DNA of 64,000 nucleotides from Octopus vulgaris (lineage: Eukaryota), in NCBI GenBank assembly GCA_951406725.2, contig OX597820.1, positions 29,884,001 to 29,948,000 on the forward strand, read 5' to 3'. The notes under the pieces are model-generated. The model did not search any database and had not been told where the DNA came from. It was given only the letters and a program-made list of their open reading frames with translations. Each line of letters opens with the position of its first letter. The stretch's first letter is position 1. Below, in pieces: positions 9,963 to 56,177 of this stretch. A program made the position numbers and the translations under genes.

Positions 9963-10161
9963 TGACCGCGTGTGTACCGTTGGCGATATTTTTCCCCCTG
10001 TCTTCCCTTCTCTGGATCTTTCCTTCTCCTATGTTTTCAACGAAGAGCTCCGCTCGAAACGTTAAACCCTCTTTCCTTCTTTCTTGCGCGTCCAATAATA
10101 CTATATTTGTTCCACGTCCTCGCGTTGTTGTGTTTTTTTGTGCTTTCATGTTTGGATTAAC
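9963..10161 (+). mobile_element. Short Penelope-LTR-like element with a decayed hammerhead (10033-10067)
   Basis: Homologous to 18870-19082 and 35747-35826 and ends at (TA)n. Motif GTTT-TCAACGA-A-GAGC/GCTC-GAAA-CGTT-AAAC. Confidence 0.6.
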
Positions 10162-10329
10162 TATATATATATATATATATATATATATACACGCACAGAG
10201 ATTATGATATACATATGCAGAAGTAGCATGTTTGCTTATAGATAGATAAAAAGAGAGAGAGGGGGGGGGGAGACAGACAGACAGACAGGCAGGGACAGAT
10301 AGATTGGGAGGAGGGGCAGAGAGAACGAG

Positions 10330-10892
10330 AGAGATACAATTGATTTCAAATTTTGGCACAACGCCAGCAAGTTCGTGGGGGAGGTGATAAGTCGATTATA
10401 TCGACCCCAGTGTTTACCAGGGTCTCATTTTATCAACTGCGAAAGAGGATTAAAACGTAGCGACAAACGAAATACACATTTCTTTACTACCGACAAGGGG
10501 CTAAAAATAGAGGGGACAAACAAGGACAGACAAAGGGATTGAGTCGATTACATCGATCCCAGTGCGTCACTGGTACTTATTTAATCGACCCCGAAAGGAT
10601 GAAAGGCAATGTTGACCTCGGCGGAATTTGAACTCAGAACGTAGCGGCAGACGAAATACCTATTTCTTTACTACCCGCAAGGGGCTAAAAATAGAGGGAA
10701 CAAACAAGGACAGACAAAGGGATTAAGTCGATTATATCGACGCCAGTGCGTAACTGGTACTTAGTTTATCGATCCCGAACGGATGAAAGGCAAAGTCGAC
10801 TTCGGCGGAATTTGAACTCACAACGTAACGGCAGACGAAATACCGCTAAGCATTTCGCCCGGCGTGCTCACGATTCAGTCAACTCGCCGCCT
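10330..10892 (-). mobile_element. SINE family B multimer (~3 units)
   Basis: Repeated ~184-bp unit with a single head at ~10890. Confidence 0.85.
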
Positions 10893-11214
10893 TAACGGGA
10901 AGAAGAATATTGATAATGCCATTAATGATATCTTGGGAATTATTATAAACCTATAATTATCTTAAATATTCGTTTTTCAGTCAATTTTTATACAGCAATA
11001 TATAAATTCTGTATTGTTTGGAAAATTAATCCATTTATAATAGCACCACTTCTAATGCTGAACACTCTTTTCATTGCAAAAACATGTCTGCCACGAGATT
11101 TTTTATAATAGCTACGGTTGATTCATGCCATGTGAGGGAAGTTTGTTAGGTGGAAACTGTGTAGAAGCCTATCGGATGAATTATGCCTGTAATTTTTTTT
11201 TTCTTTATTATCCA

Positions 11215-11815
11215 CAGGGGGGCTACAAATAGAGGGGACAAACAAGGACAGACAAACGGATTAAATCGATTATATTGACCCCAGTGCGTAACTTGTACTT
11301 ATTCAATCGACCCCGAAAGGATGAAAGGCAAAGTTGACCGCGGCGGAATTTGAACTCAGAACGTAACGGCAGACGAAATACCTATTTCTTTACTACCAAC
11401 AAGGGGCTGAACACAGAGAGGACAAACAAGGACAAACAAACGGATTAAGTCGATTATATCGACCCCAGTGCGTAACTGGTACTTATTTAATCGACCCCGA
11501 AAGGCAAAGTCGACCTCGGCGGAATTTGAACTCAGAACGTAACGGCAGTCGAAATACCGCTAAGCATTTCGCCCGGCGTGCAAACGTTTCTTATTACTTT
11601 ATTGCCCACAAGGGGCTAAACATAGAGGGGACAAACAAGGACAGACGAACGGATTAAGTCGATTACATCGACCCCAGAGCGTAACTGGTACTTATCTAAT
11701 CGACCCCGAAAGGATGAAAGGCAAAGTCGACCTCGGCGGAATTTGAGCTCAGAACGCAAATACAGGCGAAATACCTCAAAGCATTTCGCCCGGCGTGCTA
11801 ACGATTCTGCCAGCA
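11215..11815 (-). mobile_element. SINE family B cluster (3+ units, two heads)
   Basis: Same repeated unit. Confidence 0.85.
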
Positions 11816-54100: not shown

Positions 54101-54630
54101 TACATGTACATCTACACATATATATGTATACATATACACCTATATATATATACATCTATACATATACATTTGTGCAAATGTATACATATATATATATATT
54201 ATAATAAGATATATATATATATATATATATACATAATATATATATATATGTGTGTGTATATATATATATATATATATATATGTGTGTGTGTGTGTAGATA
54301 TCTATATATATATATATATGTATGCCTGTATATATGTGAGATAATAGTTTCACTTTACTAGTTTCAGTATTAAAGTCAAACTAATAAAGTGAAAACATCT
54401 GACATTACAACAGAGAAATGTTATTGTTTCACTTTTGATACGTAATACTGAAATAGTGGAGAAGATATCATATTGCTCTGGGCTCGCACTAGGCAAGAAG
54501 TTAGAAACCTTTTGGCGTATTAAACTACATGGATCCTAAGTAAGGCATGTGTAAAATTTGAATGAAATTGGTTATGTAGTTCTCAAGTTTTAGGGATTCA
54601 CATGGACATCAGCTACACATTCTCATCTTT

Positions 54631-55145
54631 ATCTATATATATAAAACTGTAGTTGTGTGAGTGTCTGTCCCCTTCGATTTAGATTCCTAACTACTCCACA
54701 TTTTGCGGTTCAGTTTAACCAAATTCGGGTATCTTATAGTCGTGATTCATATCGAGCCCGTCTGAGTATTAGTGCGCGTCTACGATGAGTCTACGATTTT
54801 AAAAATAATTTAACATCATTTTTTATTCCATTTTAATGCATAATTTTTCGTGTGTCGATGGCGGCGGAGTTGGCGTCCATGGTCACACCTGCACCTGTTT
54901 GCTTCTCCCCTTCTTCCCTCCCTCGTGAAGCTGTGGGGAAGGGAGTGTAAGGAAATCAACGTCGTAAAGCGTTGTCAAGGAGACCAGCGTTCTTTTAGAA
55001 CAACGACTTCATGGCTTGAAGTCGCCAAAACAGAAATGGCTAAGAAAGCCCGAATTGGCATCTATAAGGGAAGTAACTCTCTAAAAATGCTTATATAGTT
55101 ATTTCCCTTACAAACCCGAGCAACGCCGGGCGATACTGCTAGTAT
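54631..55145 (-). mobile_element. Helentron/DINE-1-like non-autonomous element
   Basis: 5' ACTAGCAGTATCGCCCGGCGTTGCTCGGG hairpin and 3' ...AGTTTTATATATATAGAT; the same termini as 59783-60184. Confidence 0.65.
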
Positions 55146-56123
55146 ATATATAAAAGATTTACGGATGCGCATGAGCATGCATGTATACATATATATATAT
55201 ATATTTGTGTGTGTGTGTGTGTGTGTGTGTGTGTGTGTGTGTGTGCATATGCGCGTGTATATATATGTATATATATGTGTGTTCGTGTGTGTGTGTGTGT
55301 GTGTGTATGTCAGCATATGCACACATGTATATGTACGTATGTCATTATACCTTTTTCCTCCTCTCTGATTCCTACCTATCACACTAACCTATACAATCAC
55401 ACCCGTATTTTTATAGAAATTTGAAATCCTTGTATTCTTGTCGCCACTTCAAAATTTGCTAATAAAATTACGACTCACTTTGATAACACCACACCCATAC
55501 CTTTTCCTATCCATCACTTAATGCAGCTCTATTATATCACCCCTATTTACACGTCTCACACTTATTCACTCTTTACCTTCTCATCTTTTCCTAGTCCTCC
55601 ACCACTCCTCTCCCATCTTCCCACCACATTATCCTGACCACCAACTACAACTCCTTTTCTCACTTCTTTCACCCTTTCTTCACTTTTTCACTCTTTTCAC
55701 TTTTTCTCTCTTTTCTCTATTTCTTCCGCTCATTTTCTCTTCCTGTTTCCCTTTTACCTATCTCCTCATTCTAAATATACACATCTCCACCTCCACACAT
55801 CTATCAACAAATAATACTAATACAATCTCAACTTTTCATTCACACCACAGGACACTTTCGAATAAGCAACACAGAATCCACAGCACTATACTTTGAAATG
55901 ACTAAGCATTAACTACTATTGGAACTTACATACTATATACAGGAAATTTTTTTACCACTTCTACTTCCCACTTACTCAAATAATGGAACAGCAACTACAA
56001 TATCTATATACATTTTTATATTTCTACTTTCATTCTCATATTTCCTTCTATATTCCCAATCTCCTTTTCCATAATAATTCCTTATTTCGAACTCAAATAT
56101 CTACCTCTGTTTAAACATCGCAC

Positions 56124-56177
56124 ATTGTATTTGATGAAGGGATATCCATATTATCCCAGAAACAGCTGTAAGACAAT
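56124..56177 (+). ncRNA. Type I hammerhead motif (C3U) in a pyrimidine-rich Penelope-UTR-like tract (~55345-56250)
   Basis: ATTGTAT-TTGATGA-A-GGGATA(TCCATAT)TATCCC-A-GAAA-CAGCTG-TA-AGACAAT; palindrome ACAGCTGT. Confidence 0.65.

Follow-up and report, generated by a model that had tools for sequence, protein, structure and literature searches.

Minimal type I hammerhead motifs near the fixed 3′ ends of dispersed repeats, some of them Penelope-linked, in Octopus vulgaris

Hammerhead motifs are scattered through a 64-kb stretch of the Octopus vulgaris genome (the window: positions 1–64,000, strands marked (+) or (−)). Very probably they represent minimal type I hammerhead folds situated near the fixed 3′ ends of mobile elements: three of the families are attached to Penelope-like elements (PLEs), the others are likely to be moved by the same proteins, and the solo copies are likely to be inert. 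Hammerheads near the fixed ends of PLE-linked repeats are a known arrangement. What is new here is a tRNA-headed hammerhead SINE (family E) and a set of young families with altered catalytic cores.

All nine motifs of the original prediction – 10033(+), 18946(+), 19192(−), 20272(+), 21036(+), 28396(−), 35568(−), 43761(−) and 56124(+) – were found again in place, and two further motifs plus a degenerate one were added. Chance expectations were obtained from dinucleotide shuffles of the window in 500-nt blocks. A canonical-core descriptor matched the window three times and matched nothing in any of 15 shuffles; allowing U3-A8 gave four matches, against none in every one of 30 shuffles; allowing up to one mismatch gave six, against 0–1 per shuffle (5 of 30 shuffles held one). 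Sixty sampled 10-kb stretches of the genome (600 kb) yielded 21 strict matches and their shuffles none, and extrapolation from this sample puts the genome-wide number at ∼100,000. In motif density the window is ordinary for the octopus genome: the notion of a hotspot was rejected, since 64-kb draws from the sampled stretches reach the window count with a probability of ∼0.2. Motifs arising by chance in low-complexity DNA would accord with the modest folding z-scores of single family sequences (−0.6 to −2.9) and with the Rfam scan of the window, where no hammerhead family appeared among the best 150 of 530 matches, nearly all of these 150 being microsatellite-driven miRNA. However, the shuffle and co-variation controls refute this reading, and we give it practically no credence: shuffles of the window and of the 600 kb were equally empty of strict matches, unrelated families hold the motif at a common relative position, and the stems show compensatory changes.

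The nine motifs, previously assigned to about seven families, resolve into eight sequence families and six lineages, with A related to G (z 9.8) and B to D (z 17). Family A is present as a younger subfamily (9961–10163(+); the ∼205-nt 3′ end of a Neptune-like PLE, hammerhead 10033–10067), as an older subfamily with the canonical core CTGACGA (18876–19084(+); hammerhead 18946–18980, with G16.2 of helix III changed to A) and as a 3′ fragment starting downstream of the hammerhead (35747–35827(−)). Family G is a young ∼214-nt element (35470–35683(−); hammerhead 35568–35605). Family B (19159–19694(−); hammerhead 19192–19279) combines a canonical core with a long helix II, and its upstream part is homologous to family D, which has a branched insert in helix II and ends at (TTA)n (21021–21185(+); hammerhead 21036–21141). 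Family C (20130–20459(+); canonical hammerhead 20272–20335, 4-bp helix III) is part of a closed, retrozyme-like, non-coding unit of ∼480 bp. Family F extends over ∼0.9 kb (55340–56250(+), 5′ boundary approximate; hammerhead 56126–56175). One of the two added motifs (61708–61771(+)) is a 70% relative of family C with G8A in this copy, and lies in a partial tandem at 61400–62018 in which 118 nt are duplicated. The degenerate motif (∼6035–6078) accompanies the 3′ end of a family related to a second PLE, N2 (6035–6273(+)).

Most of these elements are short, as predicted, the exceptions being those at 28396 (2.4 kb), 56124 (∼0.9 kb) and 19192 (∼0.5 kb). The distance from cleavage site to 3′ end is 39–130 nt, close to the 35–120 nt first proposed, and in A, B, C, D, F, G and the PLE family N1 the 3′ end is fixed, give or take a few nt. 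The expected microsatellite boundary does not hold for E, in which 0 of 25 copies end at a microsatellite and the (AAT)n is internal; in most families, E excepted, (TA)n-type 3′ flanks adjoin 10–25 of 25–30 copies by a narrow test (the top-40 matches per family lean towards the query copy). Inversions at the 5′ end affect 7–10 of 25 copies in each of B, C, D, E and F, and none in A (30 copies) or G (25 copies).

The link to PLEs is clearest for N1. The window holds a young, Neptune-like, 5′-truncated copy (28307–30749(−), 2.4 kb) that consists of an ORF remnant spanning RT and GIY-YIG (29370–30749; 458 aa identical to full-length copies), followed by the 3′ UTR, a hammerhead variant (28399–28436; U3-A8, A13C) and an end in (TA)n. 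The full-length element at locus L206 comprises a terminal repeat, ORF1 (557 aa), ORF2 (775 aa) and a second terminal repeat with an inverted 5′ copy: the pseudo-LTR partial tandem structure of a PLE. ORF2 contains RVT_1 and GIY-YIG domains, a CxxxxCxxC linker, DKG and YLDD, that is, the RT with C-terminal GIY-YIG and CX2-5CxxC linker characteristic of EN+ PLEs; 6 of 25 copies have a 35-nt tail. At two of three long loci (L385 and L386) a CA-rich UTR of ∼2 kb connects family A with decayed PLE ORFs. The other added motif (56960–56999(−), with a U3-A8 core and intact GAAA) sits in a terminal repeat at 56851–57110 (boundaries approximate) and matches both terminal repeats of the PLE at locus L221. 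A Penelope origin is thus borne out by RT and GIY-YIG ORFs for N1, A and the 56960–56999 motif, while for B, C, D, F and G we infer it from the constancy of the 3′ end, a 5′ end that is ragged or inverted, and the presence of tails. Upstream walks from B, C, D and F met no ORF, and none was linked to E or G; a PLE fragment beside one G copy was rejected as a partner, being inverted and ending in another repeat.

In anatomy the motifs are minimal type I hammerheads such as PLE pseudo-LTRs are known to carry. As anticipated, helix III is a palindrome or near-palindrome in all nine family sequences folded; in a monomer it could close with 0 bp in A, E and G, 1 in N1 and N2, 2 in B, D and F, and 4 in C. 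Dimer dependence of minimal type I hammerheads has already been published (PMC4209133), and dimer-dependent cleavage would fit an anatomy in which A, G and E have no closable helix III. Because a dimer forms by swapping helices I and III, cleavage would take two hammerheads of the same family, and perhaps the PLE protein as well. That stems differ yet keep pairing was examined by co-variation in sequence-only alignments. Both partners have changed in 6 of 10 pairs of the N lineage, with a score of 0.433 against 0.174 in shuffled data (reached by 0 of 500 shuffles), and C3-G8 is replaced by U3-A8 in 3 of 11 rows; the signal is weaker in the A/G lineage (2 of 9 pairs), and helix I co-varies between B and D. 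The hammerhead fold is under selection.

Only four of the nine window copies (18946, 19192, 20272 and 43761) retain a canonical core. Among the other five, the 10033 copy has three departures (TCAACGA, decayed beyond its family's CCGACGA), and those at 21036 (U4A) and 56124 (C3U) have one each by decay, their family majorities being canonical; the departures at 28396 and 35568 are family-wide. At family level the majority sequence follows CUGANGA...GAAA...UH, or its U3-A8 form, in B, C, D, E, F and older A, but not in young A (U4C, 22 of 30 copies), G (A6U, 25 of 25), N1 (U3-A8 with A13C, 25 of 25) or N2 (U4C in the intact copies seen). The U4C, A6U and A13C cores are read as variants of the hammerhead fold. 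U4C considerably lowers hammerhead activity in vitro (PMC3088659), and young families with altered cores are likely to cut poorly. The idea that the youngest families always have variant cores was rejected: the genome sample includes identical canonical-core tandems, and youth needs no variant core, because several young sampled families keep canonical ones. Insertion in vitro is reported to be unaffected by hammerhead mutants, cleavage proving dispensable there (PMC11167929); full catalytic speed is likely to be dispensable for spread.

How such elements might arise can be sketched from work on other PLEs (PMC11167929, PMC4209133). The PLE protein would nick AT-rich or (TA)n DNA, and reverse transcription would be primed at an internal site 40–130 nt downstream of the hammerhead, mostly on uncut RNA. 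Copies running from the priming site back to the transcript start within the pseudo-LTR would then yield the ∼210-nt elements of A and G. These elements begin abruptly at an initiator-like motif: the 5′ boundary, counted from the cleavage site, is sharp at a TCA motif in both A (27 of 30 copies within −113 to −95) and G (21 of 25 within −115 to −108). Inspection by eye showed no DPE-like motif at this boundary, which could also be a microhomology truncation hotspot beside (TA)n/(TG)n targets. Among 17 A copies in non-target DNA, seven begin at −107 to −103 and none further upstream.

Two alternatives give cleavage a larger role. One holds that the short elements are active retrozymes that cleave, circularise and spread as circular RNA. 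The closed ∼480-bp unit of family C, tandem at locus L210 and with wrap-around in 6 of 25 loci, is what this predicts, as is its 4-bp helix III, potentially long enough for closure within a monomer; canonical-core tandems in the genome sample (a 359-bp array and units of ∼520 bp) point the same way, and two of the 17 A copies outside target DNA have their 5′ end no more than ∼2 nt from the cleavage site, a weak hint of a cut template (such a start is absent from 12 G, 12 E and 8 B copies in non-target DNA). Yet tandem closed units with a hammerhead per repeat are found for C and not for A, G or N1, which run on into long UTRs or ORFs without closing on themselves and whose altered cores should slow cleavage (for U4C, PMC3088659); moreover, in Xenopus only 1 of 9 dimers cleaved (10.64898/2026.07.22.740005). 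We therefore consider active retrozymes an unlikely general account, one that may hold for family C alone; most window elements are solo ends of longer elements. The other alternative, that the motifs are self-cleaving sites in introns of host pre-mRNA, draws on the ∼100,000 motifs genome-wide, many of which must on that number lie in introns, and on two same-strand A copies 9 kb apart in the window. It is unsupported because no host exon was found: unmasked ORFs and a splice-site scan gave none in 264 kb (the window and 100 kb on each side), and an exon-like stretch near 37.3 kb behaves as a multicopy repeat. A pre-mRNA would in any case carry one strand, not both as originally suggested; most copies are solo, helix III of A, G and E is not closable alone, and the five non-canonical window cores also speak against it. 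We regard this as very improbable.

Family E is identified from its sequence as a SINE with a tRNA-Arg-like head and a canonical hammerhead. Its body (43704–43878(−); hammerhead 43761–43806, 3′ end away from any microsatellite) is parted from its head (44499–44570(−); A-box-like and B-box-like motifs at tRNA spacing) by an unrelated ∼555-bp repeat (43879–44435) inserted in the internal (AAT)n. Against 30 genomic tRNA loci of six amino-acid types only, the head scored best with tRNA-Arg(TCG) (z 8.3), then tRNA-Arg(TCT) (z 7.7). Rfam returned no tRNA match for two heads and no hammerhead match on the element, and ARAGORN calls at a relaxed threshold on 13 heads were inconsistent with one another. 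The family is short, dispersed and non-coding; alignments reach into the head at 11 of 25 loci, all five head matches in the 600-kb sample adjoin a body, and the hammerhead has 848 exact copies.

The 3′ ends of E form two clusters ∼30 nt apart (+58 to +75 in 17 and +93 to +96 in 8 of 25 loci), and together with 5′ inversions in 10 of 25 these read as a PLE-type insertion signature. E thus likely rides PLE machinery, probably by borrowing the PLE priming route. The rival view makes E an ordinary LINE-driven tRNA SINE with a captured hammerhead piece, or a relative in kind of schistosome Sm-alpha, either way independent of PLEs. Its insertions are not at (TA)n, no partner PLE with a matching 3′ end came to light in comparisons with six families (z 0.6 or lower), and schistosomes do possess tRNA-derived hammerhead SINEs (PMC6765202, PMC2770079). 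Nevertheless, the 25 loci show neither poly(A) nor a tandem-repeat tail nor a target-site duplication, the paired 3′ ends and inversions are a PLE signature, and the hammerhead has the minimal PLE architecture (extra A, helix III ACGU); we think PLE independence rather doubtful. A broader proposal, which we put forward tentatively and as somewhat less than probable, is that E is an undescribed tRNA-Arg SINE mobilised by PLEs through a borrowed hammerhead-and-tail end and that, in addition, the top recent PLE families keep the fold and detune the core (U4C, A6U, A13C), so that the fold would act chiefly as a signal in RNA structure, and what is made most often would be a copy, ∼210 nt long, of an RNA leader that was never cut. 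A PLE-driven SINE would, if true, extend the SINE–LINE partnership to a third class of retroelement. Identity of E with OR2 is unlikely, because OR2 is classed as a CORE SINE (PMC4758252) and in E nothing but (AAT)n separates the head from the body.

The sheer number of motifs is no novelty, because Schistosoma mansoni, with its much smaller genome, is at least as dense in them. About 38,500 hammerhead candidates are recorded in that species (PMC2770079), up to 120,000 motifs in axolotl (PMC7229834) and 235 Rfam hammerhead matches in giant squid (PMC6962438): the octopus number is comparable to that of axolotl and far above the squid count. The role of PLE hammerheads has been called unclear (PMC8557442). 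The octopus genome offers a natural series – young elements that are still intact, with cores either canonical or variant, stems that co-vary, and relatives spanning a range of ages – and with this series in one genome the role becomes directly testable.

Our literature search found no cephalopod survey of PLE hammerheads. The metazoan survey of Cervera and de la Peña (2014, PMC4209133) describes, as here, a palindromic minimal helix III with one additional nucleotide ahead of helix II, genomes with numerous sequence families, truncated PLEs that mostly hold a single motif, and the U3-A8 variant; the text examined makes no mention of family-wide U4C, A6U and A13C, which octopus has, and octopus differs also in the long or branched helix II of B and D and in host group, here a cephalopod. 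The SINE-like elements Sm-alpha and Sj-alpha of schistosomes (PMC6765202, PMC2770079) share with E a tRNA-derived, Pol III-type head, a type I hammerhead and tens of thousands of copies, but are described as tandem repeats with active hammerheads. E differs in being dispersed, in the minimal PLE-type architecture of its hammerhead and in its internal (AAT)n, and it shows tail-type ends as well as inversions at the 5′ end. Family C and the sampled arrays resemble non-LTR retrozymes (PMC7229834; 10.64898/2026.07.22.740005) in forming short, closed, non-coding tandem units with a type I hammerhead; the solo ends of longer elements that predominate in the window do not. By linker and domain order the octopus PLEs appear Neptune-like: Neptune elements (Craig et al. 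2021, PMC8557442) have, in common with those seen here, a C-terminal GIY-YIG, the CX2-5CxxC linker, pseudo-LTRs, an inverted 5′ copy, a 30–40 nt tail, (TA)n targets and an optional frameshifted ORF1. The Poseidon element PAc of Anolis (Frangieh et al. 2024, PMC11167929) likewise has a hammerhead upstream of two tail-defining end positions, AT-rich targets and copies that span the uncut site; its ORF begins inside the hammerhead, whereas ORF1 of N1 and N2 is located well downstream of the motif.

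The hammerhead motifs are real, and they are largely accounted for by the known biology of Penelope-like elements (PLEs). All nine predicted in the window were found. A canonical-core descriptor gave 3 matches there against none in any of 15 block shuffles; permitting U3-A8 gave 4 against 0 in each of 30 shuffles, and permitting one mismatch as well gave 6 against 0–1 per shuffle (30 shuffles). Descriptor scans added motifs at 61708 (+) and 56995 (−), and a degenerate motif lies near 6040 (+). The core is canonical in only four of the nine window copies. The window is 36% GC and rich in microsatellites, with a repeat share of ∼60% by our own masking; the best 150 of its 530 Rfam matches are nearly all microsatellite artefacts.

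Hammerhead density in the window is typical of the genome (assembly of 2.80 Gb, 227 contigs). Sampling at preset round coordinates took in sixty 10-kb stretches from 27 contigs. In these the strict descriptor gave 21 matches, in 10 of the 60 stretches, against 0 in four shuffles; seven of the matches belong to a single tandem array and one or more look like chance. With one mismatch permitted there were 31 against 0–4. The bootstrap density of 35 per Mb (12–67) corresponds to ∼93,000 motifs genome-wide (33,000–187,000), and the window's count was reached in ∼20% of draws. Within this sample, L232 (2300–4520) holds a retrozyme-like 359-bp tandem array, part inverted, with 7 identical canonical hammerheads; L267 (2100–2800), L292 (2300–3600) and L310 share one family of ∼510–535-bp tandem and inverted units with canonical hammerheads.

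The Penelope origin proposed for the elements was borne out by linked ORFs in some families only. The 28396 motif, of the young Neptune-like family N1, ends a 5′-truncated element whose ORF remnant carries RVT_1 and GIY-YIG. Full-length N1 at locus L206 runs terminal repeat, ORF1, ORF2, terminal repeat, plus an inverted 5′ copy; ORF2 encodes 775 aa with a CxxxxCxxC linker, and a 287-aa query from the N1 protein recurs stop-free at 100% identity in at least 20 places in the genome, among the matches listed. Homologues of the PLE protein occur in molluscs. N2 is a second intact PLE family, with U4C in its terminal repeats. Upstream of family A (10033), decayed RT and GIY-YIG sequence was met in two of three long loci, and PLE locus L221 carries a match to the 56995 motif in each of its two terminal repeats. 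For families B (19192), C (20272), D (21036), E (43761), F (56124) and G (35568), by contrast, the upstream and partner search linked no ORF to any; 5′ inversions occur in 7–10 of 25 copies of B, C, D, E and F.

Where ORF2 (−1 frame) overlaps ORF1 in N1, a slippery heptamer U UUU UUA (L206, ∼4870) suggests programmed −1 frameshifting; no strong hairpin is predicted downstream of it. By eye, the N1 hammerhead is preceded at ∼35 nt by a TATA-like box (L206, 3100–3150), and that of N2 by CCAAT-like boxes and a TATA-like box (L212, 4850–4990). In the window, an N2-related family is present at 24075–24243 (+) as a 3′ fragment without hammerhead. Another PLE family, divergent from N1, has near-identical copies at L242 9332–9664 (−) and L302 6514–6846 (−); the descriptor finds no hammerhead within 900 nt downstream.

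Each motif was searched against its own genome, with the best 40 candidates scored per search and 25–30 loci fetched. The majority core of the fetched loci is canonical in B, C, D, E and F; it reads CCGACGA in A, CTGTTGA in G and TTGAAAA...GCAA in N1. Mean identity to the family majority is 99.8% for N1, 99.2% for G, 97.9% for A, 97.0% for B, 96.2% for E, 95.5% for C, 95.4% for F and 92.7% for D, means biased high because only best-scoring copies enter. A is related to G, and B to D. The fixed 3′ ends lie 39–130 nt downstream of the cleavage site, near the 35–120 nt of the original prediction. The ∼480-bp unit of family C closes on itself, and tandem copies are seen.

Two features appear to go beyond known PLE biology: a SINE with a PLE-type end, and inherited core variants. 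The SINE is family E, whose head (44499–44570) is parted from the 43761 body by a later insertion in (AAT)n; head and body travel together. Compared with 30 tRNA loci of the genome, the head aligns best with tRNA-Arg (z 8.3); Rfam gives no tRNA call for it. The hammerhead is canonical, and its exact 46-mer occurs 848 times in the genome against 0 for the reversed control, which with 7 body matches in the 600 kb sample suggests some tens of thousands of copies. Among 25 copies, the 3′ ends form two clusters ∼30 nt apart, 10 have 5′ inversions, none ends at (TA)n, so that the supposed (TA)n targeting fails for E, and none has a target duplication; we read this combination as a PLE signature. A partner PLE for E was sought and not found. 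Mariner/Tc1 transposase remnants (Transposase_1, HTH_48) occupy 26403–26918 and 42686–43706; the insertion of E lies close to where the second one ends.

The variants U4C, A6U and A13C are, from their distribution, inherited states and not single-copy decay. A13C is found in N1 and four diverged relatives with differing helix II sequences; A6U is kept across G-like subfamilies differing at N7, N17 and helix I; U4C sets off the younger subfamily of A (seen in 22 of 30 loci selected on upstream sequence), older A copies having U4. When 11 motifs of the N lineage were aligned on sequence alone, both sides changed in 6 of 10 pairs, and C3-G8 had switched to U3-A8 in 3 of 11 rows. The covariation score is 0.433 against 0.174 shuffled (0 of 500 shuffles reach 0.433; slid controls 0.07–0.14), with the caveats that relatedness can inflate the shuffle control and that rows were selected by a core-anchored pattern. 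Covariation is weaker in the A/G lineage (2 of 9 pairs; 22 of 79 distinct motifs aligned, picked for diversity). Low activity is reported for A6C and U4C in the consulted passages of PMC3088659, which do not mention A6U or A13C; its supplements may list these two, and the supplements of the papers cited may bear on how new the variants are.

The 5′ start of A and G copies is sharp and precedes the cleavage site by ∼110 nt (A 27/30, G 21/25), at or just after a TCA that we take to be an initiator-like motif. Passages in PMC11167929 and PMC2377424 describe, respectively, internal priming near the RNA 5′ end and a transcription start site inside the pseudo-LTR; together these would make the ∼210-nt elements copies of uncut leader. 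The same boundary could instead be a microhomology hotspot. A minority of both A and G copies extend further upstream; among A copies in non-target DNA, 7 of 17 start at the boundary and none further up. In two of these 17 the start coincides with the cleavage site, which hints weakly at cutting of some of the RNA. A target duplication of 14 nt flanks one G copy. A short, internally deleted A copy (19093–19128) directly follows the 18876–19084 element.

Folding indicates that helix III cannot close in monomers of A, E and G, and in 8 of 9 folded families the hammerhead fold is less stable than the minimum-energy fold by at least 0.6 kcal/mol (up to 9.5 in N1). A dimer would exchange helices I and III, so that the partner must presumably come from the same family. 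On these grounds solo copies are likely inert. The consulted passages of PMC4209133 describe many minimal-hammerhead families per animal genome, mostly solo and weakly active as dimers, and already cover the core of the present finding. Neither octopus PLE hammerheads nor a PLE-driven tRNA SINE was found described in titles, abstract openings and passages, a survey with Repbase, Dfam, SINEBase and subscription papers outside it.

The possibility that the window is intronic had been raised; no host exon was found in it or in the 100 kb on either side. An exon-like stretch at ∼37200–37445 was ruled out as a GC-rich multicopy repeat with many 90–99% variants in presumed-RNA contigs, possibly a structured LINE or SINE 5′ end. 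LINE 3′ parts with zf-RVT-like matches lie at 2047–2682 (+) and 22171–23079 (−), and a common short repeat forms 184-bp tandem units at 10454–10844 and 17186–17737.
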